64,000 nucleotides of DNA, taken from NCBI GenBank assembly GCA_964500205.1, contig CAZCNS010000004.1, positions 98,260-162,259 on the forward strand, given 5' to 3'. A program made the position numbers and the translations under genes. This DNA is from an uncultured Chryseobacterium sp. (GTDB lineage Bacteria > Bacteroidota > Bacteroidia > UBA10329). The notes under the pieces were generated by a model that did not search any database, was not told the origin of the DNA, and saw only the letters and a program-made list of their open reading frames with translations. Positions 13,967 to 58,889 of the stretch are shown here, one piece after another; within the stretch, counting starts at the first letter, position 1, and each line of letters begins with the position of its first letter.

Positions 13967-14182
13967 TCACTGCGAGCGCAGCGAAGCAGTCTCCCCGTTA
14001 CCCTCCTCCGCAACCATCACCCCCTCCGCGCAGTAGTCGCGCAGCACCTCGTTTAGCAGGTCAGCCGTAAGGTCAGTGCTGCCGGCCAGTATGGTGCGGA
14101 ACACCTCCAAGCGGTCATCCACGCTCAGGGTGTTCAGCCTTTCATCATCGCGGAAGAAGGACATGAAGTCGTCTCGGGTCAT
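13967..14182 (-). CDS. Hypothetical small protein (72 aa from ATG; the longer ORF would need a TTG start)
   Basis: GC-rich ORF abutting the low-GC HNH islet, with acidic composition. No recognisable family. Confidence 0.3.
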   Translation of the reverse strand: MTRDDFMSFFRDDERLNTLSVDDRLEVFRTILAGSTDLTADLLNEVLRDYCAEGVMVAEEGNGETASLRSQ

Positions 14183-14223
14183 GGGATAATGGGATGTCAG
14201 TGGAGAATAGCTAAGCCTATGGT

Positions 14224-14478
14224 TCAACTTGCAATTCCGTATGAACTCTTCGTGAAGTGTATCCCTTCAATTGCCACAACTGCTTCATAGCGTGAAAGGG
14301 TCTCTTCATCAGAGGCATACTCTTCTAACAAGGAATCACATATGTAGACCTGAATGGCCTCCAAGGACGTCCTTCCTCTACTGTTGCCAATATGTCTTCC
14401 GTACTTGAAGATCGCGAACAGCGTGAAGCATTCGAGAGTTTTATGGGATGGACGAATGAATCGAGATTTGTTCGTCAT
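14224..14478 (-). CDS. Hypothetical small protein, 4-bp ATGA overlap with upstream HNH gene
   Basis: 84 aa ORF in a low-GC segment. Its start overlaps the HNH stop, which suggests translational coupling. Could equally be a gene remnant. Confidence 0.3.
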   Translation of the reverse strand: MTNKSRFIRPSHKTLECFTLFAIFKYGRHIGNSRGRTSLEAIQVYICDSLLEEYASDEETLSRYEAVVAIEGIHFTKSSYGIAS

Positions 14479-15257
14479 TGTTGAAATCGGTTATCGTAAT
14501 GCTCCTTCAGAAACTCTTTATCAGGCCAAAACTTCTTCGGCTCCTGAATACGCTTTCCTTCATACTGAAAGAATAATTCCTCCAGTTTACTTGGCTCACC
14601 ATAGCCTTTCAACTTGGGTGAGACCTTAATGATGTAGTCAGGCGTGATAGAGATCAGCCCTTGCTCATAGGCTTTGTCATGCAGGGCGTTGATCGCAATG
14701 CCGTTGTGTGGGTTCATCCTGTTCTTCTCATCATCTGCCCAACGCTTGATGTGACCCGCAACCAAGAGTTCAGGTTTGCTGATACCCGTGATGCAGCACG
14801 TGCCATCATAGGCTGAGAGCACCATTTTCCGGAAGAATGACTGATTCACCCGCATCTTCACCACCCTTTCACGCTCCTCTCCTCCTTTACTGAGGATAGC
14901 ATCGAGGTCAGGCTCATCTGCAAGCACATCTTCAATGTTGCGAAGCTCTTTTTGGGCCCGCAGCAGTTCACTCTCAAAGGCTACGCTCTCAATATTACCA
15001 TAGAACTCATCCCATATCTCCCTGTCCAACTTGCTTGCGTTCGTAGCACCTTTTACGCCCCGTGCTTGAAGCATGGGGTCGAAGCTTGCAAGATTCCCCA
15101 GTTTCAACCCAACGGACGAAGGCGTCCTGCCGATCAGGTTGGCAAGTGCGATCACTTCAGAGTTGTTCTTATGAAACTTGCCAAACGGCAGCTTAGAATA
15201 CAGGTTGATTGCCAGTATTAACTCCTCTCTTGTCCAAAGTTTCTGTCCTGCTTTCAT
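14475..15257 (-). CDS. HNH endonuclease (HNH_2 / putative restriction-endonuclease-like family), solitary
   Basis: 260 aa. C-terminal HNH core ...YDGTCCITGISKPELLVAGHIKRW...NPHNGIAINALHDKAYEQGLI. Local GC is roughly 44% versus ~60% for the flanks. Confidence 0.75.
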   Translation of the reverse strand: MKAGQKLWTREELILAINLYSKLPFGKFHKNNSEVIALANLIGRTPSSVGLKLGNLASFDPMLQARGVKGATNASKLDREIWDEFYGNIESVAFESELLRAQKELRNIEDVLADEPDLDAILSKGGEERERVVKMRVNQSFFRKMVLSAYDGTCCITGISKPELLVAGHIKRWADDEKNRMNPHNGIAINALHDKAYEQGLISITPDYIIKVSPKLKGYGEPSKLEELFFQYEGKRIQEPKKFWPDKEFLKEHYDNRFQQ

Positions 15258-26984: not shown

Positions 26985-27005
26985 GAAGCCAACAAATGGC
27001 TCAGT

Positions 27006-27431
27006 TCATTTGAACATGTCCTCAAATTCTGCTTTGGTCAGAATATTCAGTCGTTTGAACTTTTCTTCGAGACGGGCTTTCTCCTGAAGAATGTGTCTGT
27101 CCCCACTTGTTATAAAGCCGCTGTTGGTCTGGAGGGCAAGGGCGACCACATAATCATCGTCCCTATCGGCAGGGATATACCTTTTGATGGGCGGCTTGAG
27201 TGCGAACGGGATGGTGTTGTCTCGGATGAAGCGCAGTGCATAGCTCCTATTCACACCGTACTTCTCAAGGTGCGGATAAGCGAGCACCCTGCGAATTTCG
27301 GTCAGCAGTTCCTCACAGCAGAAAATTGCAATTCGATGTTCGGCAATGATCTGCAACAGGGTCTCTTCCTGCCTTCCGATGAGGTAACTAACCCATACGT
27401 TTGCATCCAACACGAACCTGTCCTTACGCAT
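27006..27431 (-). CDS. PIN-domain toxin (TIGR00305-like toxin-antitoxin PIN family)
   Basis: About 141 aa from the internal ATG MRKDRFVLDANVWVSYL. Acidic PIN residues are present. Its start overlaps the upstream small gene. Confidence 0.65.
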   Translation of the reverse strand: MRKDRFVLDANVWVSYLIGRQEETLLQIIAEHRIAIFCCEELLTEIRRVLAYPHLEKYGVNRSYALRFIRDNTIPFALKPPIKRYIPADRDDDYVVALALQTNSGFITSGDRHILQEKARLEEKFKRLNILTKAEFEDMFK

Positions 27432-27642
27432 CCGCTTGGCGCGACAGGTGTTTGATACGGTCAATCTCTTCCAATGAAGGCGCGCTCAGACCTTTGGGCA
27501 TAGCTGTTCTGTCAGGGATGCCATCACTCAGGAGCTTCCTCGCACGGAGGCTTATAAGCAGGGCCTGCTGCTGCTCATTGCTCATGGCTTTCAGTTCAAC
27601 CATCAGCTCCTTGAGCATCATATCAGTATCAGAGGTGGGCAT
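27424..27642 (-). CDS. Putative antitoxin partner of the PIN toxin
   Basis: 72 aa small helical protein whose 3' end overlaps the PIN gene start, as is typical for TA operons. No family assigned. Confidence 0.45.
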   Translation of the reverse strand: MPTSDTDMMLKELMVELKAMSNEQQQALLISLRARKLLSDGIPDRTAMPKGLSAPSLEEIDRIKHLSRQADA

Positions 27643-27832
27643 ATCCAGTCAGTTGTCAAGCAAAATTACACAGATTCGTTCTTCAACATCAGACACTGCT
27701 GTCCAGGGCAGGCGAACTGGGTGGGGTGATGTGTACGGAGCACAATTCATAGATGTGGATCACGCGTGCATAATTTGCAACATTCATTTTTCATATATAA
27801 CAGTAAATCAGATGTTAATGTTATTTCAATCC

Positions 27833-27872
27833 CCGTAAATCATCAGTTTAACTGACGATTTACGGGGTTGAA
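27833..27872. promoter_or_regulatory. 36-40-bp palindrome CCCCGTAAATCATCAGTT|AACTGACGATTTACGGGG immediately upstream of the second DUF4143 ATPase gene
   Basis: The arms are reverse-complementary with one mismatch. The element sits at the 5' end of the 27868 ORF, before the alternative start at 27919. Confidence 0.5.
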
Positions 27873-29076
27873 TTTTTCTATCTTTGCGGCCGTCATGGCA
27901 CTAACGAGGATATTTGATATGCGGCTGTTGAAGCTGCTCCGGACCTTCCCGGCTGTGGGCCTGATAGGTCCGAGGCAGGCAGGCAAGACCACGGCTGCCA
28001 AACTGGTGCAGCGTCAACTGAAAAAGCCGGCCATCTATCTCGACCTCGAAAGTCCGTCTGATTTCCGCAGATTCTCCGACCCCGAGCTGTTCCTCACAGA
28101 GCTGGAGGACACCTGCGTCATCATTGACGAGGTGCAGCGGATGCCCGAGCTTTTCCCACTGCTGCGCTCACTGATAGACCGCAACCGTAAGCCCGGACGG
28201 TTCCTGCTGCTGGGTTCGGCCTCGCCTGAGCTGGTAGCGGGCGTGAGCGAGTCGCTGGCGGGGCGTATCAGCTATCTGGAGGCGCATCCCTTCCATATCC
28301 TCGAACTTCCCGACCGTCCGACAACGCAGCGGAAACACTGGTTCCGTGGCGGATTCCCCGATGCGTGGAAGGCCCGCAGCGATGATGCTCGTTTCGAGTG
28401 GACGGACAACTTCGTGCGGACGTTCGTGGAGCGCGACCTCAACATGCTCTTCGGTACATCATTCTCCCCTCAGGTGATGTTCCGCCTCTGGCGAATGTTG
28501 GCACATCACCATGGAGGGGCGTGGAACGCGCAGTCCATCGCCAAGGCACTTGACATGAGCCCGACCACGGTGAACCGCTACGTGGATTTCCTCGAAGGGG
28601 CGTTCATGCTGCGCAGGCTCGCGCCCTACCACGCCAACACCCGCAAACGCCTGAGCAAGACACCGAAGGTCTATGTGCGTGACAGCGGGCTGCTGCACTA
28701 CCTGCTCGACATCAACCGGGCGGCCGATCTGCTCTCGCACCCATCGGTGGGGCATTCGTGGGAAGGGCATGTCATCGAGCAGATCATCGCCCTGCTGCCA
28801 AGGACAATACAACCGTTCTACTACCGCACCCATGACGGGGCGGAAATGGACCTGGTGCTGGTGAAAGGGGTCGCCCCGATAGCCTCCATCGAGGTGAAGC
28901 TGACGCTCTCGCCCACCGTGACGCGCGGGATGCGGGAAAGCATCAAAGACCTGGGCACAGCGCAGAACTTCATCATCACCCCGCAGGATTCGCCTTCCTA
29001 CCCCATCGCTGACGATATCCGTGTATTGGGGCTGCGGGAGTTCGTCACCACGCTGCTCCCGAAGTTGGTGAAATGA
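27868..29076 (+). CDS. AAA+ ATPase, DUF4143 family (second copy; diverged paralogue)
   Basis: Walker A LIGPRQAGKTT and Walker B IIDEVQ. The alternative start MRLLKLL at 27919 lies downstream of the palindrome. Confidence 0.8.
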   Translation: MNFSIFAAVMALTRIFDMRLLKLLRTFPAVGLIGPRQAGKTTAAKLVQRQLKKPAIYLDLESPSDFRRFSDPELFLTELEDTCVIIDEVQRMPELFPLLRSLIDRNRKPGRFLLLGSASPELVAGVSESLAGRISYLEAHPFHILELPDRPTTQRKHWFRGGFPDAWKARSDDARFEWTDNFVRTFVERDLNMLFGTSFSPQVMFRLWRMLAHHHGGAWNAQSIAKALDMSPTTVNRYVDFLEGAFMLRRLAPYHANTRKRLSKTPKVYVRDSGLLHYLLDINRAADLLSHPSVGHSWEGHVIEQIIALLPRTIQPFYYRTHDGAEMDLVLVKGVAPIASIEVKLTLSPTVTRGMRESIKDLGTAQNFIITPQDSPSYPIADDIRVLGLREFVTTLLPKLVK

Positions 29077-35108: not shown

Positions 35109-37517
35109 ATGGAAATCAACTACATAGGTGAACAACTGATGCCCGGCAAGCTCGGGCATTTCTTTATCGTGCTGGGCTTCGTGTCGGCACTGGTGGCGGC
35201 CATCGCTTACTATTTCGGGGCGAAGGATGATGCCGAGTCGAATGGCTGGCGCAAGATGGGCCGTGTGGCGTTCGGCATCCATTCGTTCTCTGTGCTCAGT
35301 GTGGTAGGCATATTGCTCGGACTATTGGCCAACCATCGCTTCGAATACCATTACATCTGGCAGCACTCGAATACCGAGATGCCCATGGAATATATTCTTT
35401 CCAGCTTCTGGGAAGGGCAGGAGGGCAGTTTCTTGCTGTGGTTGTTCTGGCATGTGGTGCTGGGTCTCATCCTGATGTTCTCGGCCAAGAAATGGGAATC
35501 GCCCGTGATGGCGGTGTTCGCGCTGGTGCAGGCATTCCTCGTGTCGATGCTGCTGGGCACGCAGCTCGGTGATTTCCGTCTCGGCAGCAACCCGTTCGTG
35601 CTGCTGCGAGACCATCCCGATTTTATGAATCTGCCTTTCCTTCAGAACGCGAGCTACCTCACCAATCTGGACGGTCGCGGCCTCAACCCGCTGCTCCAGA
35701 ACTACTGGATGACTATCCACCCACCCACGCTGTTCTTAGGTTTTGCCAGTACGCTCGTGCCGTTTGCCTTCGCGATAGCGGGCCTTTGGAAAAAGCAGTA
35801 CACCGAATGGCTGAAGCCCGCCCTGCCTTGGACGTTCTTCGGTATCATGATTCTCGGCACGGGCATCCTTATGGGAGGTGCATGGGCCTACGAGGCATTG
35901 AGTTTCGGAGGATTCTGGGCTTGGGACCCCGTGGAGAATGCCAGCCTTGTACCGTGGATCACACTCGTTGGCGCGGCCCACGTCATGGTGATTCAGAAGA
36001 ACAAGGGGCAGTCGCTTATCATCACGTTCGTGCTCACGCTCATCACGTTCATCCTCATCCTTTACTCCACCTTCCTTACGCGGAGCGGGGTGCTCGGTGA
36101 GACAAGCGTGCACGCCTTCACCGACCTCGGCATGTCGGGCCAGCTGTTGGTCTATCTGCTATCTTTCCTGTTTCTGGCGATGCTGCTGCTGGCCGTGCGT
36201 TGGAAGGAACTGCCCAAGGCTGCTGAGGAGGAGAGTCTATACAGCCGCGAGTTCTGGATGTTCGTGGGTGCGATGGTGCTCAGCATTTCAGCCTTCCAGA
36301 TCAGTTTCAGCACCAGCATACCGGTCATCAACAAGGTGCTGGGCACGAACATCGCCCCACCCCTCGACCCCATTTCGCACTACAACAGTTGGCAGCTGCC
36401 GCTGGCGATCATCGTGGCGCTGCTCATTGCGGTGACTCAGTACCTCAAGTATCGCAAGACCGAGCCGAGGAAGTTCTACTCCGCGCTGGCGATTCCGTTC
36501 GGAGTTGCGCTGGTGCTGACCGTAGCGATTGCGGTGGCGATGAAATACACCCATTTCATGTATCTGCTGATGCTGTTCGCCACGCTCTTCACAGTGACAG
36601 CCAATCTCGGCTACTGGATTCAGATTCTGAAAGGGAAAATGGCTGTGGCGGGCGCATCGGTGGCGCACGTAGGATTCGGACTCATACTGCTGGGCGCATT
36701 CCTCAGTACCTCCAAGACTCAGACCATCAGCATGAACACAAGCGGTCTGGACGTCTCCAGCCTCGGGACCGACTACTCCAACCGCGAGAACATCCTGCTG
36801 ATGAAGGGCGACACGCTGCGGATGGCTGAGTATTTCGTCACCTACAAGGGGCGCAACAAGGAGGGAGTGAATATCTTCTACGAGGTGGAATACATGACGC
36901 AGCCCGCCCCTGGGCAGTACGAGACGGCCTTCACGCTCTACCCACGCGTGCAGACCAACCCGCGCATGGGCAACGTGGCCGAGCCTGACACGCGCCATTT
37001 CCTACACAAGGACATCTACACCTTCGTGACCTACGCGGAGATTGAGAAGCCCGATGTGAAGCCCGAGGACTTCAAGAACACCACCACCAAGGCACTGGCC
37101 GTGGGCGACACGCTCTTTGCGGGCAATGCCATCATCACCTTCGATGGTTTCGACCGCAATGTGGACAAGGCAGAACTCGGTCTGAAGGATGCGGATATTG
37201 CAGTGGGCGCCAAATTCACAGCGGTTGACATCAACAGCACGCGACATACGGCCATGCCCGTCTATGCGCTGCGCGATGCCTACGCCATCCCCGTGGAGGC
37301 GGAGATCGAACAGCTTGGCCTGAAATTCCGCATCAAGCGGCTCATACCTGAAGAGGGAAAAGTGGAGGTGGAACTCTACGAACGGGCCGACAACTACCGC
37401 GAGTTCATCGTGCTGAAAGCCCTTGTCTTCCCATGGATCAACATCCTGTGGGCGGGCTGCGTCATCATGGTCATCGGGACGGTGATGGCGATAAGGAGGA
37501 GGGTGAGGTTGGGGTAA
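35109..37517 (+). CDS. ccmF: Cytochrome c-type biogenesis protein CcmF (heme lyase component)
   Basis: 802 aa polytopic protein with the WWD motif WAYEALSFGGFWAWDPVENASLVPW. Confidence 0.9.
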   Translation: MEINYIGEQLMPGKLGHFFIVLGFVSALVAAIAYYFGAKDDAESNGWRKMGRVAFGIHSFSVLSVVGILLGLLANHRFEYHYIWQHSNTEMPMEYILSSFWEGQEGSFLLWLFWHVVLGLILMFSAKKWESPVMAVFALVQAFLVSMLLGTQLGDFRLGSNPFVLLRDHPDFMNLPFLQNASYLTNLDGRGLNPLLQNYWMTIHPPTLFLGFASTLVPFAFAIAGLWKKQYTEWLKPALPWTFFGIMILGTGILMGGAWAYEALSFGGFWAWDPVENASLVPWITLVGAAHVMVIQKNKGQSLIITFVLTLITFILILYSTFLTRSGVLGETSVHAFTDLGMSGQLLVYLLSFLFLAMLLLAVRWKELPKAAEEESLYSREFWMFVGAMVLSISAFQISFSTSIPVINKVLGTNIAPPLDPISHYNSWQLPLAIIVALLIAVTQYLKYRKTEPRKFYSALAIPFGVALVLTVAIAVAMKYTHFMYLLMLFATLFTVTANLGYWIQILKGKMAVAGASVAHVGFGLILLGAFLSTSKTQTISMNTSGLDVSSLGTDYSNRENILLMKGDTLRMAEYFVTYKGRNKEGVNIFYEVEYMTQPAPGQYETAFTLYPRVQTNPRMGNVAEPDTRHFLHKDIYTFVTYAEIEKPDVKPEDFKNTTTKALAVGDTLFAGNAIITFDGFDRNVDKAELGLKDADIAVGAKFTAVDINSTRHTAMPVYALRDAYAIPVEAEIEQLGLKFRIKRLIPEEGKVEVELYERADNYREFIVLKALVFPWINILWAGCVIMVIGTVMAIRRRVRLG

Positions 37518-37866
37518 GTCGGGCTGATTGCCCCTCGTTTTATTGGCGCAAAGTGCCCGTTTCAATGCTGTTTTGGGATTCCCTCATATTTCTTGGTGAC
37601 TCGGATGCCATGCGTTCAGATAAGAATATTCCTGCGGGCTGGAATTTATTAAGTACATGAAAAATTCTATTGTTTCTTTTCTGGCAATCGTACTCGGGAA
37701 CATTTTGTGTGCTAAATACTATCACACTCAAAGCGGTTTTAGATTTTTATCATTGCTAGGGCTTTTTATGGTTTTGGCATCAATTTTTTCCTTCTGAGCA
37801 AATTTTTCGAGGCTTTTTCGCAGCAGTAATGAACAACGTATTTCTGAAGAGAAATCTGTAACTATT

Positions 37867-38175
37867 ATGGCGATTGTTTTGGTGGTGTTAATTGTGCTAC
37901 AGGTGTTTGGGATGGTATTTTTTGATGATCATCAGAACAGATTACTTGAAGAACATGGACAATTTACAGAAACCATAGTTGTGAATAAAACGCGGGAAAG
38001 GCGCGGAAGAGGTGCCGCAGGCTACTACATACATTATATTTTCACTTACAATGGAAAGGAGTATAAACACGATGCAGAAATTGACTCTGTCGAAATTGGT
38101 GATACGATAGAAATTAAGTTTTATCCTGAGAACCCTGAAAACCACCGAGTCTTAACGAAAGGCTCGAATCGTTAA
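37867..38175 (+). CDS. DUF3592-like small membrane-anchored protein
   Basis: 102 aa with an N-terminal TM helix, then a beta-rich region with the IEIKFYPENPENHRVL pattern. Lies in an AT-rich segment. Confidence 0.5.
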   Translation: MAIVLVVLIVLQVFGMVFFDDHQNRLLEEHGQFTETIVVNKTRERRGRGAAGYYIHYIFTYNGKEYKHDAEIDSVEIGDTIEIKFYPENPENHRVLTKGSNR

Positions 38176-48805: not shown

Positions 48806-50467
48806 TCAAAAACTGAAGTGAAGCCCCGCAATGAAACTGAACCGCTGTGACGGATACCTGTCCCAAAGCTCATAGCGCATCGCACCGATGTTGCGGAAGT
48901 CCACGAACGCGCCCAGCCATTTCTTGTAGCGGTATTCCACCCCGAGGTTCGCATCCACGAAGGCATCCAGCCCGATCTTGGTATAGCGTTCCCCGAACGG
49001 GGTGACCTCATAACCCCGCGCCACCCGCTGACTCTGCGCCACGATACCCGCCTTGAAGATGAACTTGTCATTCAGGTTGTAATTGGCCCCGAACTGGAAC
49101 CTGAACGGTGCCTCGTGCCACGGGGCGATGCTGTCGCTCGGCATGGTGAAGAAGCGGTAGTCCGCCTGCGCCACCAGTTGCAGCTTCTCTTTCAGGTGGT
49201 AGCTCAGCTCACCGCTGATGCTCGTCACCATCACATCGTGATACTCTGGCGTGAAGCGGTTGCCCACCCCGTCACTCCAGTCGTTGACCCAGAACAGCTG
49301 CTGGCCCGTGATTACCTGCGCCACGCTGATGTCGTAGGCCAGCCCTCGGAAGATGATACCCTTGAAACCGCCCCACACGTTCAGTCGCTCCCAACTGTTG
49401 CTCAGCGTCAGGTCGGTGAGGGCGAAGGGGTTCACCTGCGAGATGGTGCGCAGGCCGTTGCGCTGCACCCCGCCCTTGGCCCCCGCATAGAAGCGGAAGA
49501 TGTCCTGCACCAGGAAATAGTGGAAGTCCAGCACGGGGAACACCATCACCTGGGTCGTGGTGTCGTTGATGTCGAGCGAGAGGTTGGCGCCCACCGCAAT
49601 GCCCCACCGCTTGCGCACCGCACGGAACTCAGGCTCGAAGCCGATGACCCCGTTGTTCAGCGACTGCGTGGGCATGTCGTTGCGCCAGTAGTCGCCCGTG
49701 ATGCGGCCGTAGAGCTTCTCCTTCTTGATGTTGAACACCAGTTCCACATCGGCCTTGGCGTGATGCTCGCGGCTGGCGAAGCGGTCGGTGGTGAAACCGT
49801 AGCCGATGCCCGCGCGGTTCAGGTGGCGCAGCTTCTTGCCGTCCTGCATGGCCGCGAGGTCCATGCTCACACCGATGTGGTGGAACGACTGGCGGATGTC
49901 ATTGTCGGCAAAGGCCGTGTCCTCTGGGTTGTAGCCGTAGAAGAAATTGCCATCATGGTCGTAGGTGATGCGCTCGGTGAGGGTGTGGCCCTTGAAGAAC
50001 TTCTTGCCGAAGAGGTCAACGCCCGCATCGGTGAAGCCGAACGGACGGCCGTCAAGCTCTGCGAACGAGGCGTGGTAGCGCGCAAACCCGCCCGCTTGGA
50101 ACGACTTGCTGCGCAGGCTGCCGAAGCTCGCCTCGAAGAACGGCATGGTGTAGTTGCCGAAGCCCACCTTGAGGTGGCCGCTGCGCAGCTTGGTCAGCGG
50201 CTCGTTGGCCAGCTGGGCCGCGTTCAGGGGCTGGGTCTCGTACTTCAGCTCCTGCCGCACGGGCAGCACCGAGTACTCCATCTCGGGCAGGGCGGCCGTG
50301 TCCGTAGGCACTTCGGGTGCGGGGATGATGCGCTGTGCATCCCGCGCCACGGGGCGGTACTCCTTCCTGATGGTGAACCGCAGACTGTCGGGCAGGGTCT
50401 GCTGGGCCACCACGGGCAGCGTGAGCAGCATCGCTCCGAGGGTCAGTATGCGGGGTAGTTGCTTCAT
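48806..50467 (-). CDS. Outer-membrane beta-barrel protein (putative porin), hypothetical
   Basis: Signal peptide MKQLPRILTLGAMLLTLPVVAQ. 553 aa with amphipathic beta-strands and a C-terminal ...GLHFSF. Confidence 0.55.
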   Translation of the reverse strand: MKQLPRILTLGAMLLTLPVVAQQTLPDSLRFTIRKEYRPVARDAQRIIPAPEVPTDTAALPEMEYSVLPVRQELKYETQPLNAAQLANEPLTKLRSGHLKVGFGNYTMPFFEASFGSLRSKSFQAGGFARYHASFAELDGRPFGFTDAGVDLFGKKFFKGHTLTERITYDHDGNFFYGYNPEDTAFADNDIRQSFHHIGVSMDLAAMQDGKKLRHLNRAGIGYGFTTDRFASREHHAKADVELVFNIKKEKLYGRITGDYWRNDMPTQSLNNGVIGFEPEFRAVRKRWGIAVGANLSLDINDTTTQVMVFPVLDFHYFLVQDIFRFYAGAKGGVQRNGLRTISQVNPFALTDLTLSNSWERLNVWGGFKGIIFRGLAYDISVAQVITGQQLFWVNDWSDGVGNRFTPEYHDVMVTSISGELSYHLKEKLQLVAQADYRFFTMPSDSIAPWHEAPFRFQFGANYNLNDKFIFKAGIVAQSQRVARGYEVTPFGERYTKIGLDAFVDANLGVEYRYKKWLGAFVDFRNIGAMRYELWDRYPSQRFSFIAGLHFSF

Positions 50468-50497
50468 TAAATTAAATCACATTCTTGCCTTGTTGAA

Positions 50498-51592
50498 CTA
50501 TAGTCTTATTTCTGATGACACATCCTCTAGGAGTTGTATGAAATCTCTTAACATAGATGTATTCAGTTTTTTCGGATTATGCACCAAATCGTTTCTAAAT
50601 CTTCGTAAACTATCGAGTTTGGCTGCCATCCCTGAATCAATCTTTTCCGCACGACTAACAGTTCGAATTGCTTCGAGCATCGTGGGGTTGCGACTGGTAG
50701 AATCTCCCACATGACTTATGAGCTTCTCTTCCAACTCAGCCCACTTCTGCAAAAACTCACCAACATCACCCGTCTGGAGTCCCTTATCCGCGAGGTCTTT
50801 TATTTCCTTACATAAATGAAAAATTGGGTCGTTGTCAGGATACAAGGACAATTTTGGGATTGGGTCAAAGCCATCACCCCAAAACGACTTATTAGTTGGA
50901 ATCTGGAACTTCGCCACTAGTCTTCGGTTAAAGTCCAATTCTGTTTTGTGCTCGTAATTGTAAGTGATTTCATCAGTTCCTGCCAAGTAACCTTCTTGAA
51001 AGTACGGTCTTAACGCAGTTGGGGGGCAAATGGACAGCAGTCTTATGTTGACCAAATCATGTTCAGAATTTATCGTTATTCTATTTGTTAGATAAGGTAG
51101 CCCAAATACAAATATGTATGCACTATCACCTTCATTTCCCATTGTAGCAAATGAGCATGCTACTCTCAGCGAATGGGTGAAATCGAGATATGGTGTATCA
51201 CAAACCTCATAGTGCTGAAGAACACTCCATTGCACCGCTTTTCTTCTCTTCAACTCCTTGAAGCCTTCAATTTCTTTCTGTTCAAACAGCTCAACAAGTG
51301 CTCTACTTGCACCCTCCAAAACATCGAATTTTCTTCGCATGTCTCGATGAAGGACGTATTCACCACGGTAGATGCTTGGATAAAAAGTAGAACTACCTGC
51401 CTTATTTCTATAGTCCTTGGATTGTCCCCTGTAGAAAAGCAGATGGTCTTTATTCTTAAAAGAAAGCTTCGCAGTTTGTTCCACCAGTTCACGGAAGGTC
51501 TTCACCTGATACGCATCAGACGAACCAACCTTGGTGTTTTCACCAAAGTGACTCAGTAACTCCTCCGTAAGTGTTGGCTGAATGTCTCGCAT
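50498..51592 (-). CDS. FRG-domain protein with C-terminal HEPN-like (Rx4H) domain; candidate defence/abortive-infection effector
   Basis: The FRG signature LLFYRGQSKDY...FYPSIYRG ... LQHYEVCDTPYLDFTHSLRVACSFA is read directly. The C-terminal helical region carries LRRFRNDLVHN, matching the HEPN R-x4-H motif. The gene is about 40% GC, 14 bp downstream of the TPR gene stop, with an internal ATG (MRDIQPTL) preferred as start. Confidence 0.6.
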   Translation of the reverse strand: MRDIQPTLTEELLSHFGENTKVGSSDAYQVKTFRELVEQTAKLSFKNKDHLLFYRGQSKDYRNKAGSSTFYPSIYRGEYVLHRDMRRKFDVLEGASRALVELFEQKEIEGFKELKRRKAVQWSVLQHYEVCDTPYLDFTHSLRVACSFATMGNEGDSAYIFVFGLPYLTNRITINSEHDLVNIRLLSICPPTALRPYFQEGYLAGTDEITYNYEHKTELDFNRRLVAKFQIPTNKSFWGDGFDPIPKLSLYPDNDPIFHLCKEIKDLADKGLQTGDVGEFLQKWAELEEKLISHVGDSTSRNPTMLEAIRTVSRAEKIDSGMAAKLDSLRRFRNDLVHNPKKLNTSMLRDFIQLLEDVSSEIRL

Positions 51593-51605
51593 TACTTCAC
51601 ATACA

Positions 51606-54600
51606 TTATTCCTCCTCCACTTCCTCAACCCCCTCAAAAAGCTTCGCATCGCGTTGCCGTTCCTGCTCAAATTCCACCTCGAACGATGAACCGTCCTGCC
51701 GTTCCTGTAGGCGCGGCTGCGCGGCATTGATGGCGTCCAGCTTCTTCTGCGCATCCTCCTTGAGCACACCGAGGTAGTTGTCCACCACGTTCTGCAATGT
51801 GAGCTTGGCCTGGAAGAGGTCGCCCTGCTTCTCGTAGCTGTCGGCCAGCAGGATGAACGCCTTGGCTATCCACACCTTGTAGTTGGGGAAGATGTTGACC
51901 ATCTCGAACACCATGCGCTCGGTCTCCTCATAGTTGCCGCTGAGGAACTGGATGCGCGCGAGGTTGTACATGGCCTCGGCCCCCATCTCGCTGTTGCTGC
52001 GCAGCAGGGTCTCCTGAAAACGGGCCTCGGCCATCCGCAGGTCGTTCTGCGCCAGCGCGCACTTGGCGGATATGAGGTGGGCCTCGCTCACCAGTTCCTG
52101 CGGGGCGCGGTCGGCACGGATCACCTTCTGGGCATACTCCTCGGCCTGCCCGAAACTGTTGAGTGCAAAGTGGCTGCGCATCAGTCCCGCGCGGGCCTCC
52201 AGCAGGTTGTCCGCCCGCTCGGCCAGCTCCTCCAGCATGGTGAAGCGCAGCATGGCCTCCTGGTGCCGCTGCTGTGCGGTGTAGATGCGCCCAGCGGCCA
52301 GCAGCGACCGCTCGGTGAAGCCGTTCTTGGCGAAACTCAGCACCTTGTCGTAGCCGCGCAGGGCATCGTCATACATCCTGAGCTGGTTGGCGGCCTCGGC
52401 CTGATAGAAGTGCGCGTTGAGGGCGAAATACCCGTTGGGGAAGCGGTCGAGGTAGCCGCCCAGCTCCTTGATGGCGTTGCTGAGGTCGCCCCTTACGTAG
52501 CGCAGCTCCGCAGCCTGATAGTAGGAGGTGTCGAGCGCGCCCTTGGTGATGTCCGGGAAGTCCTTGGAGGCCATGTAAGTTTCAAACCCAGCCACATCGG
52601 TGTTCTCGATGTATATCTTCTGAATCTTCATCAGCGCCTCCTTGGCCTCGGGCGTGGCGGGGTGGTTCTCGGCCACATCCTTGAAGACGGGCAGGGCGCG
52701 GTCGTCATCGCTCTGGTTGTAGAAGATGAGGCCACGGTTGAGCTTCGCCCTGCGCATGTAGCTGCTGTTGGGGTGCTCGGCAATGATGCGGTCGAACCAA
52801 GCGAGGGCATCGGTGGTGTTGTCCATGAAGAAATAGGTCTCGCCTATCTCGTATTTCGCGTCAGCGGCAAATCCCGTCCTGGGGTAGTTGTCGAGCATGG
52901 CCTTGAGCGTCTCGACCTTGCTGGCCGACTTGCCCTGAATGCCGTAGCACACGGCTATCTGGAAGATGGCGTAGTCGGCATCGGGCCGCTGCATCCGCAG
53001 GGCGCGGTCGTAGAATTCGATGGCGAGGCCAGGGTTGCGCTGCAGATAGTAGCAGTCGCCTGTGCGCATGTGGGCATCGCTGATGCGGGCGCTGTCCTGC
53101 CCCGTCAGCTCGGTGAACCTGCGGAACCACGATGCGGCCTCGGTGTAGTTCTCCTGGTCGAAATAGAGGTAGCCCATGCCGTAGTGCGCCATGCCGTACT
53201 CAGGCAGGCGGATGGCCCCTGGCGACTCGATGAAACTCGTGTAGTACTCCTGCGCGGCCTTCGGCTTTTTCATGCGGGCATACGCCTCAGCCTTCCAGAA
53301 ACGGCCCTGCGCAAGGGTGTGCTGGTCGATGGGATATTTCTCGGCAAGGTGGAAGAAATGCACCGCCCGCTCGAACTTGAGGTCGTGCATCAGCTCGGTG
53401 CCACGGGTGTAGGCCACGCGCTGATAGGTGCGCTGCAATTCGGGGTCCTTCTTCTTGATGCGCTCGATGGCATCGATGGCGGCCTCGTAGTTGCGGGTCA
53501 CCAAGTAGATTTGGAGCAGGAAGCTGTACGATTCGTCAATCCGCTCGCTCTCTGGGTGGCTGGCGATGTACTCGCTGAACGCCTGCACGGCCTCGTTATA
53601 GGGGTCGAAGCTGAGTTTGTAGGCCAGCTTCGCGAAGTTGAACAACGCGTCCTCCTGCAGTTTCTCATTGAACGAGAGGCGCGATGCGGAACGGAAGGCG
53701 TTACGGGCCTGCATCTTCTGCCCGTCCTTGAGGTGGCAGTCGCCCATGTGGTAGTACGACAGTTGGGCCATGGCGTCCTGCTCACGCACTACCTGACTGA
53801 AATAGTTGACGGCCTTGGTGCAGTCGCCCGCGCGGTAGCTGGCATAGCCGAGCTTGTAGCGGTCATCGCGGTTGCCGCCCAGTTCGGCCACGGCCTGTTC
53901 GAGGTGCGGCACGGCCTTGGCGTAGCGTTCGAGGCTGTAGTTGGCCTCACCGAGAATGCGATGCACCTCGCCCGTCTTGCCCTTGGCGAAGTCCTTCTTC
54001 AAAAGGGCCTCTCCGTAAGTAATGACCTCCTCGTTGTTCTGCTGGCGGTAGAGTATCTGCAGGATGTAGAACGGCACGGTGCTGCCGAACAGCGCATCGT
54101 CCTCCAACTCGCGGAAACCCTTGAGGGCCATCTCGTTGTTGCCTTTCCGATAAAGGATGTAGGAATTGTAATAGATGGCGGGCGAGCGGTATTTCTTGCC
54201 GCCTTTCATCACGTGGGCCAGCGCGTCCTGCGCCTCGGGGTACTGCTCCTGCTGGAAATGCGCGTAGCCTTTCTTGAAGTAGAATTCCTCCAGATAGGAG
54301 TCGTCCAGCTCGTGGGGGTCCACCTTGGCGAACGCATCCGTCACAGCTTTGAACTTTTTCCTGTGGAAATGGCTGCGTCCGAGATGGAAATGCGCGTCCA
54401 CCGACTTGGGATGCTCTGGGTGCGAGGCCACGAAGCCTTCCATCATCGGCTCACCATCGGGGTTGAAGAGTTCCAGCGCATCGAGGGCGGAGTAGAACCC
54501 GCTGTTCTCCACGATGATGGAGGGCAGTTCGTCCCTGCGCTGCAAGGCACGGTCGAAGTGGTGCTGCGCCACGGAGTATTTCTGTTTCTGCTGATGCTCC

Positions 54601-54716
54601 AAGGCCACGTTGTACTCCCGCATCGGGCCGTAGTCGTTGGCCACGCGCTGGGCGAGGGCATCTGAGACGGTAATGATTGCGACCGCAAATGCCAGCACAG
54701 CAGTGCGGGAAAGCAT
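51606..54716 (-). CDS. Tetratricopeptide-repeat protein (about 1036 aa), secreted/lipoprotein-like
   Basis: Signal peptide MLSRTAVLAFAVAIITVSDALAQ, followed by TPR-like helical repeats throughout and an acidic C-terminus. Confidence 0.75.
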   Translation of the reverse strand: MLSRTAVLAFAVAIITVSDALAQRVANDYGPMREYNVALEHQQKQKYSVAQHHFDRALQRRDELPSIIVENSGFYSALDALELFNPDGEPMMEGFVASHPEHPKSVDAHFHLGRSHFHRKKFKAVTDAFAKVDPHELDDSYLEEFYFKKGYAHFQQEQYPEAQDALAHVMKGGKKYRSPAIYYNSYILYRKGNNEMALKGFRELEDDALFGSTVPFYILQILYRQQNNEEVITYGEALLKKDFAKGKTGEVHRILGEANYSLERYAKAVPHLEQAVAELGGNRDDRYKLGYASYRAGDCTKAVNYFSQVVREQDAMAQLSYYHMGDCHLKDGQKMQARNAFRSASRLSFNEKLQEDALFNFAKLAYKLSFDPYNEAVQAFSEYIASHPESERIDESYSFLLQIYLVTRNYEAAIDAIERIKKKDPELQRTYQRVAYTRGTELMHDLKFERAVHFFHLAEKYPIDQHTLAQGRFWKAEAYARMKKPKAAQEYYTSFIESPGAIRLPEYGMAHYGMGYLYFDQENYTEAASWFRRFTELTGQDSARISDAHMRTGDCYYLQRNPGLAIEFYDRALRMQRPDADYAIFQIAVCYGIQGKSASKVETLKAMLDNYPRTGFAADAKYEIGETYFFMDNTTDALAWFDRIIAEHPNSSYMRRAKLNRGLIFYNQSDDDRALPVFKDVAENHPATPEAKEALMKIQKIYIENTDVAGFETYMASKDFPDITKGALDTSYYQAAELRYVRGDLSNAIKELGGYLDRFPNGYFALNAHFYQAEAANQLRMYDDALRGYDKVLSFAKNGFTERSLLAAGRIYTAQQRHQEAMLRFTMLEELAERADNLLEARAGLMRSHFALNSFGQAEEYAQKVIRADRAPQELVSEAHLISAKCALAQNDLRMAEARFQETLLRSNSEMGAEAMYNLARIQFLSGNYEETERMVFEMVNIFPNYKVWIAKAFILLADSYEKQGDLFQAKLTLQNVVDNYLGVLKEDAQKKLDAINAAQPRLQERQDGSSFEVEFEQERQRDAKLFEGVEEVEEE

Positions 54717-54901
54717 CGTGGAGTCGGGCTTTATGTGGCGCGTCATGTCTCGGCTAAAGTAGCGGGATGCCATTCGTGGCATTTTTCGCCACTGGCGTAC
54801 TTATGAACGCGGAAGTGTTGAAATTATTGGCAACATGACATATCGAAGTCAAGGCGCATCCGTCTGCCAGAATGAGAAGCAAGCCGTCTGAAAATCGAGG
54901 C

Positions 54902-58807: not shown

Positions 58808-58889
58808 TACCGAAGGCCGGGATCGAACCGGCACGCCTTGCGGCACACGAGTTTGAGTCGTGCGCGTCTACCAATTCCGCCACTTCGGC
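58808..58889 (-). tRNA. tRNA-Leu (anticodon CAA)
   Basis: Folded by hand. Acceptor stem GCCGAAG/CTTCGGT (G1-U72), D-loop AATTGGTAGA, anticodon loop CT-CAA-AC, long variable arm and T-loop GGTTCGATCC. Length 82 nt. CCA is not encoded. Confidence 0.8.

Follow-up and report, generated by a model that had tools for sequence, protein, structure and literature searches.

An FRG-HEPN fusion gene inserted into an envelope gene pair of an uncultured Chryseobacterium, and its possible role as a dual effector in biological conflict

The sequence analysed here, hereafter 'the window', is a stretch of 64,000 nucleotides from an uncultured Chryseobacterium sp. (contig CAZCNS010000004.1). On its minus strand, as are the window genes, gene parts and spacers given below, it carries at 50498..51592 a complete gene for a protein of 364 amino acids plus stop codon, in which an N-terminal FRG module is fused to a C-terminal HEPN domain. 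The gene starts with an ATG at 51592 and ends with a TAG at 50498-50500; its reading frame is supported by the translation, by full-length homologues and by its substitution pattern. Coordinates and strand had been assigned correctly in a first-pass annotation made from the letters alone, and the motifs quoted there are all found in the translation, namely FYRGQ (residues 53 to 57), YPSIYRG, LQHYEVCDTPYLDFTHSLRVACSFA and RRFRNDLVHN (residues 330 to 339). A longer open reading frame (ORF) from a GTG at 51769 was dropped, since it runs into the upstream gene and an orthologue of 92% identity begins at the same ATG.

The gene interrupts a pair. The first member, upstream, encodes a tetratricopeptide repeat (TPR) protein of 1058 residues that matches Pfam TPR families (51606..54782, stop codon at 51606-51608); the second, downstream, encodes a putative outer-membrane protein of 553 residues (48806..50467, ATG at 50467). 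The spacers are short: 13 nt from the TPR stop to the start of the inserted gene (51593..51605), a position shared with a second lineage described below, and 30 nt from its stop to the downstream start (50468..50497). The second spacer had been given rightly as about 30 bp, the first as 14 bp. The downstream product had been called a porin; with its signal-peptide-like N-terminus and final F it stands as a putative outer-membrane protein, but the porin label itself is backed by no Pfam or NCBIfam match. In metagenome-assembled genomes (MAGs) of Flavobacteriales this gene is conserved (51 to 80% identity) and always follows the 1058-residue TPR gene, the two forming an uncharacterised envelope pair. 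PorW/SprE of the type IX secretion system (T9SS) gives a weak, sub-threshold match to the TPR protein.

The composition of the inserted gene sets it apart. Its GC content is 41.8%, compared to a window mean of 0.57 (z = -4.4 against other 1.1-kb segments), and lies below that of every non-overlapping 1.1-kb stretch in the window. At third codon positions (GC3) the value is 0.405, compared to 0.846 for the TPR gene and 0.874 for the downstream gene. The earlier estimate was about 40% GC in a backbone of about 60%.

An empty-site survey was carried out by searching one genome per species with the downstream gene and then locating all three proteins in the loci returned. In all 19 related loci carrying both flanks (Flavobacteriales/Bacteroidia MAGs), the TPR gene was followed directly by the outer-membrane gene, with outer-membrane proteins 51 to 80% identical to that of the window and aligned segments 18 to 318 nt apart; no FRG match was found anywhere in these 19 loci. 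The gene would have counted as core had orthologues lain uniformly between the same two genes, as the first-pass annotation pointed out; with 19 relatives lacking it and GC3 so different from that of its neighbours, the proposed insertion of a foreign gene into an existing operon holds. In two insert-free relatives, the two whose junction aligned cleanly, the TPR stop overlaps or abuts the outer-membrane start (L006, 5640-5690, GAATGATGAAG; L007, 5975-6010, AATGAGAAA), so the insertion split a pair that was probably translationally coupled.

The same order of TPR, FRG and outer-membrane genes was found on one metagenome contig (L027, gene at 350-1444), with nucleotide identities of 89%, 86% and 88%, respectively. 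It follows that the insertion is older than the divergence of at least two lineages. When the two copies of the inserted gene are compared, the ratio of nonsynonymous to synonymous divergence (dN/dS) is 0.066 at a dS of 0.74, with a dS of 0.28 to 0.42 for the flanking fragments. The gene is under strong purifying selection and, given such a ratio over such a dS, functional; together with the GC3 contrast and the 19 empty sites, this identifies it as an accessory gene that was inserted and then maintained. In both lineages (dS about 0.7) its GC3 is 0.37 to 0.41 within genomes of GC3 about 0.8 to 0.87, that is, no amelioration is visible. This persistent AT-richness might stem from selection, either for AT-richness as such or on codon usage, or from replacement by recombination at a later time.

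The insert carries few traces of how it arrived. A scan for sigma-70-like promoters, whose model does not cover those of Bacteroidota, found none in the 13-nt spacer, and no site resembling a terminator was seen in 50300-51900; co-transcription with the neighbours, in the TPR operon, is therefore the simplest reading of the sequence. Neither inverted nor direct repeats were found to flank the insert, nor an attC-like hairpin at its ends, nor any similarity between the flanks of the window copy and those of other family copies. A transposon and an integron cassette were both rejected for want of inverted repeats, attC-like hairpin, terminator and shared flanks. The sequence TAATG, present at both window junctions, was considered as a target-site duplication; it is not conserved in the second lineage and is put down to chance or microhomology. 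What was transferred is essentially a bare ORF, which came by horizontal transfer, probably from a low-GC member of the Bacteroidota.

The N-terminal module spans residues 1 to 270 (50783..51592). The FRG domain that had been read from the motifs is confirmed by a Pfam match (PF08867) over residues 52 to 153 (51134..51439) with E = 8.2e-9 and 36.7 bits, compared to a gathering cutoff of 25, and the match is also present in all members of an alignment of 35 full-length homologues of 54 to 92% identity. The F-R-G signature is kept in 55 to 78 diverse sequences, R55 being invariant and G56 and Q57 at least 90% conserved or invariant; across 78 diverse sequences both R55 and Q57, which sit in the model strand E51-57, are invariant. 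In a broad N-terminal alignment, D137, S141 and Q199 are invariant, and T139 and E200 at least 90% conserved. The residues invariant in fused and stand-alone forms alike are R55, Q57, W122, Q126-H127-Y128, P134, D137, S141, R143, R195-P196 and Q199.

No sequence route led from the module to any solved FRG structure in a PDB sequence search. A first AF2 model, built with the 35 close homologues as input, was poor over residues 168 to 219, and a fold search with it gave only HEPN matches. A deeper N-terminal alignment was therefore needed, and a second model was made of residues 1 to 270 alone with a broader alignment, combining cluster representatives and a second database search. This model reached a predicted local distance difference test (pLDDT) score of 94 and a predicted template modelling (pTM) score of 0.91. 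Its fold search returned almost exclusively ADP-ribosyltransferase (ART) toxins, the closest being toxins of the R-S-E type and not KptA. The Foldseek ranking agrees (TreTu, PltA, pierisin, ParT, Arr), with only TreTu nearing significance (E = 0.03). The FRG module is predicted to have the ART fold, a split beta-sheet around an NAD+ cleft, of the R-S-E type.

In the model, R55 of F-Y-R-G-Q (residues 53 to 57, 51422..51436) lies on the first core strand, predicted strand beta1, and is the candidate catalytic Arg. T139-H140-S141 (51170..51178), past the predicted strand 136-139, is a candidate S-T-S-like motif, and Q199-E200 (50993..50998), ahead of the predicted strand 201-205, holds the candidate catalytic Gln/Glu. 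This placement would fit an R-S-E triad, since ART catalytic residues are found on strands 1, 2 and 5; ART toxins attack proteins or RNAs (PMC13617354). R55, T139-x-S141 and Q199-E200 thus make up a candidate triad, placed by position and not by residue-level superposition. The description of FRG domains as uncharacterised in the first-pass annotation remains correct as regards experimental study, but not computationally: Frg had been placed in the ART superfamily by the Aravind laboratory, with a proposed role as an antiviral effector or NADase; it is used by prokaryotic immune systems and seldom found in viruses (PMC9503650), and it appears again as an ART-superfamily clade and predicted antiviral effector or NADase in PMC12522546. 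Our own fold search agrees with this placement.

The C-terminal domain (residues about 272 to 364, 50501..50779) is all-helical, in keeping with the all-alpha HEPN fold, and carries the Rx4-6H RNase motif of HEPN proteins as R333-N-D-L-V-H338 (50579..50596). For the single protein the profile matches, over the last 60 residues or so, are weak: HepT-like E = 0.006, DUF4145 0.014 and HepT-like_2 0.07. The HepT-like family (PF01934) scores 16.7 bits, below its curated cutoff of 23.5, and the NCBIfam HepT_toxin model, at E = 2e-4, scores 21.2 bits compared to a cutoff of 60. At the family level the picture is clearer. Among the 35 homologues, HepT-like is matched at E <= 0.01 in 25 (best 2e-6), DUF4145 in 15 and HEPN_RiboL-PSP in 2. 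R330, R333, N334 and H338 (RxFRNxLVH) are invariant in the alignment, and the surrounding helices vary. A profile search of PDB sequences ranked HepT toxins at the top, weakly (E 0.1 to 0.4), with the motif aligned to their RNxxVH. The HEPN domain predicted earlier is thereby upheld through motif invariance, family-level matches and structure matches, the scores of the single protein being sub-cutoff; given this combination, we call the domain HepT-like and do not file it as a member of the HepT family. NCBI names homologues only 'FRG domain-containing protein'; JGI names several of them (P0030, P0046, P0090 and P0103) 'uncharacterized protein YutE (UPF0331/DUF86 family)', so automated pipelines already recognise the HEPN/DUF86 half in some homologues.

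How common is this architecture? Of the 1829 cluster representatives that a search with the full-length protein gave at E <= 1e-3, the best 120 are mostly of 345 to 387 residues, three being truncated at 269 to 271, and include proteins of Sphingobacterium, Maribacter and Pontibacter; full-length homologues of 364 to 380 residues are 52 to 92% identical to the window protein. When 1.84 billion representatives (50% identity clusters) were searched exhaustively with a profile, 1010 matched at E <= 1e-3; these comprise fused forms of about 360 to 410 residues and many stand-alone forms of about 270 to 290 residues covering only profile positions 18 to 267 or so. A few members end differently, P0195 for example with the C-terminal part of DpnII. 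The FRG module, occurring alone or with other C-termini, is thus the constant core, and HEPN a swappable add-on that is frequent and usually intact: the motif R[NDHQSTK]xxxH is kept in 174 of 194 retrieved family members of 340 to 420 residues, some long members carrying Y or S in place of the motif His. Since about 10% of long members lack this His or have other C-termini, the family does not depend on RNase activity.

Ten PADLOC models of PDC-S15, a predicted phage-defence candidate family, match the window protein over residues 28 to 232 only (best E = 5.4e-10, range to 1e-3). No family copy was found by tblastn in 50,697 phage records, and a phage origin was rejected on this ground. One plasmid match was found, with the N-terminal module only.

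The surroundings of homologues are diverse, and no conserved neighbour gene was found among nine homologue loci, which argues for stand-alone action. Some homologues are singletons among housekeeping genes, in Maribacter, in Pontibacter and on one chromosome of 6.4 Mb. One lies in an island with PIN, PemK and DUF4258 toxins and group II introns, and another 3 kb from an AbiJ/Abi_C gene. In Sphingobacterium paludis (SNZV01000005.1; L001:1-11400), a homologue of 68 to 69% identity sits in an integrative and conjugative element (ICE) of the CTnDOT type (TraG, TraJ, TraM, TraO, TraQ), 1.7 kb from an ArdA anti-restriction gene; such a conjugative element is a plausible vehicle for spread among Bacteroidota. 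These conjugative, island and singleton contexts, the GC3 contrast and the 19 empty sites identify the family as mobile and accessory.

Further arrangements were seen in metagenomes. In six samples (L028-L033, JGI 33000422xx, P0002, 75 member sequences) the same layout recurs: a DDE transposase, a small OMP_b-brl protein and a 139-residue ORF precede the FRG-HEPN gene, and a GC-rich stem-loop and an antisense group II intron reverse transcriptase follow it. On contig ctg97413l of ENA ERZ21831104 (L034:1-17131), homologue P0113 (8001-9131) is one of several short plus-strand genes (an unknown protein of 244 residues, HNH of 247, FRG-HEPN of 376, ORFs of 255 and 133, AAA_21 of 443) alternating with at least five minus-strand copies of a 431-residue group II intron reverse transcriptase. 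At this locus Rfam confirmed five full D1-D4 intron RNAs, and an intron begins a few bases from the FRG-HEPN stop. The arrangement resembles a cassette-type array in which small conflict genes have been invaded by class C-like introns that target terminators or attC sites. Finally, in the 'MRNIVP' subclade, two unrelated contigs have a DUF5677 gene (PF18928) adjoining FRG-HEPN, upstream in one case and downstream in the other (L035:7136-7945 and L005:9328-9933). This gene may be a partner specific to the subclade or a further defence gene; no DUF5677 gene was found in the window. As to the window itself, Rfam detected no non-coding RNA near the FRG-HEPN gene, and a tRNA gene (58808-58889, RF00005, 54.7 bits) is some 7 kb away from the insert, not next to it. 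Other low-GC patches, at 37001-38000, 14001-15000 and 27001-28000 (0.48 to 0.49 per kb), could be foreign genes; apart from the FRG gene, the lowest 1.1-kb GC value is 0.434, near 37551.

We propose, with moderate confidence, that the gene encodes a self-contained dual-effector conflict protein of the abortive-infection or toxin type, combining an ART-fold NAD+ module with a HEPN RNase. The proposed role draws on analogy, on genomic context and on the listing among defence candidates; the structural and evolutionary statements above are well supported. A cytoplasmic protein, acquired horizontally and placed between two co-transcribed envelope genes, would be kept inactive in the uninfected cell. 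Upon phage infection or a comparable stress, the FRG module would use NAD+, either by hydrolysis (as a NADase) or by transfer of ADP-ribose to protein or nucleic acid, and the HEPN domain would cut RNA, dimerisation presumably being needed to build its active site, as in other HEPN RNases. RNA cleavage and the consumption or transfer of NAD+-derived ADP-ribose would then arrest the cell.

Several points weigh against this proposal. The HEPN scores of the window protein itself are under the Pfam gathering cutoff, and about 10% of the long members lack the motif His or have unrelated C-termini. PDC-S15 is only a candidate family, and no experiment on any FRG protein was found in the searchable literature. 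The window copy is outside any defence island, its neighbours being conserved envelope and housekeeping genes. Two potentially toxic domains would have to be kept harmless without an antitoxin.

The alternative that survives best, possible although unlikely, is a variant of the dual-effector proposal and does not exclude it: FRG alone would be the effector, and HEPN a non-catalytic module for dimerisation, RNA binding or sensing that detects a phage or stress cue and turns on the ART or NADase. The module is autonomous in the many stand-alone proteins, its C-terminal partner can be swapped, it is far more conserved than that partner, and the catalytic His is lost in fused members P0032, P0134 and P0143. 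In the subfamily of the window gene, however, the four residues of the HEPN motif are invariant throughout the 35-sequence alignment, whose most distant members are 54% identical, and the remainder of the domain varies freely. This is what one would expect of a catalytic motif, and the motif persists in most long members.

A further variant, in which both domains act in series on one substrate, seems improbable to us. HEPN would bind or cleave RNA and the FRG ART would ADP-ribosylate the RNA or its new ends, or HEPN would guide an RNA-directed ART; if so, ADP-ribosylation of cleaved RNA would make the damage irreparable. Either version would amount to an immune effector of a class not yet described, a single chain that targets RNA and depends on NAD+, and would reveal the first biochemical function of the FRG domain.

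We judge it about equally improbable that the gene is a selfish toxin or addiction gene, or what is left of a type VII HepT-MntA module, and plays no part in phage defence. HepT toxins are indeed the best sequence and structure matches of the C-terminus, and homologues do occur on an ICE and among toxin-antitoxin genes. But addiction is impossible for a lone toxin, and no partner was found: neither an MNT nucleotidyltransferase or MntA-like gene nor another small gene lies beside the window gene, whose spacers measure 13 and 30 nt, and none is conserved beside homologues, with no nucleotidyltransferase gene next to any copy in the nine homologue loci. An overlapping antisense antitoxin was considered (a 128-residue ORF at 51173..51559, in an open frame of 134 codons) and rejected, as it is not conserved in the orthologue of 86% identity. 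In HepT-MntA systems, MntA AMPylates a Tyr that follows the Rx4H motif of HepT; in the window protein the motif runs into VHNPKK, and this Tyr is absent.

A housekeeping role in RNA processing or repair, in which a KptA/Tpt1-like NAD+-dependent RNA 2'-phosphotransferase-type ART and an RNase would have been domesticated in an envelope operon, is very doubtful: the same site is empty in 19 relatives, distribution is patchy and contexts mobile, composition is foreign, and the nearest folds are R-S-E toxins, not KptA. That the gene is a decaying, non-functional passenger of a past insertion, as the lack of its own promoter, partner gene and mobile-element hallmarks might suggest, is effectively refuted by the selection signal, the intact frame and the retention of all family-invariant residues.

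FRG is widespread (the 1010 representatives above) and a predicted NAD+-using immune effector. The fusion offers a compact test case, with 364 residues, no partner gene and two separable sets of candidate catalytic residues, which could show what FRG does, whether ART and HEPN cooperate and how a lone two-toxin protein is silenced. The locus further provides a clean natural case of a foreign ORF, bare and promoterless, in a translationally tight operon, strongly selected and yet unameliorated.

Among known systems, stand-alone FRG proteins (PF08867; PDC-S15) share its N-terminal module of 270 residues and end at about 270 to 290 residues, whereas the window protein adds a HEPN RNase domain. 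HepT of the type VII HepT-MntA system (DUF86/PF01934; PDB 5yep, 6m6w, 7ae2) is free-standing and accompanied by MntA; here the HEPN domain is fused to a 270-residue ART-fold module, scores below the Pfam and NCBIfam cutoffs, and has neither the MntA gene nor the AMPylated Tyr. The best structural matches of the N-terminal module are R-S-E ART toxins (TreX/TreTu Rhs, heat-labile enterotoxin, pertussis-like PltA/S1, TccC3, Scabin), with which it may share, by position in the model, an aromatic-Arg on strand 1, a Ser motif past strand 2 and a Gln/Glu ahead of a later strand. RES-domain toxins degrade NAD+ and stand with TIR and SIR2 among NAD+-depleting immune effectors. RES and Frg have been grouped as ART-superfamily clades in prokaryotic immune systems, possibly NADases (PMC9503650). 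The window protein differs from RES toxins in having no RES Pfam match and no Xre-type antitoxin, and NADase action of FRG is a prediction.

The Abi2/AbiD-AbiF HEPN proteins and the RNA-ADP-ribosylating toxin CmdT embody the same concept, in which a single polypeptide or toxin shuts down translation or RNA metabolism upon infection. No sequence relationship to them was found, and neither is known to join an ART fold and HEPN within one chain. The first-pass annotation could name no described system with this architecture, and we too found no paper on an FRG-HEPN fusion in the searchable literature; the Aravind-laboratory papers that first described Frg may mention such fusions. Each of the two domains is already known, as is the concept of fusing defence effectors, and the FRG-HEPN architecture is conserved, common and uncharacterised. 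What is new here is a confident model of the N-terminal module, residues 1 to 270, whose predicted fold matches ADP-ribosyltransferase toxins.

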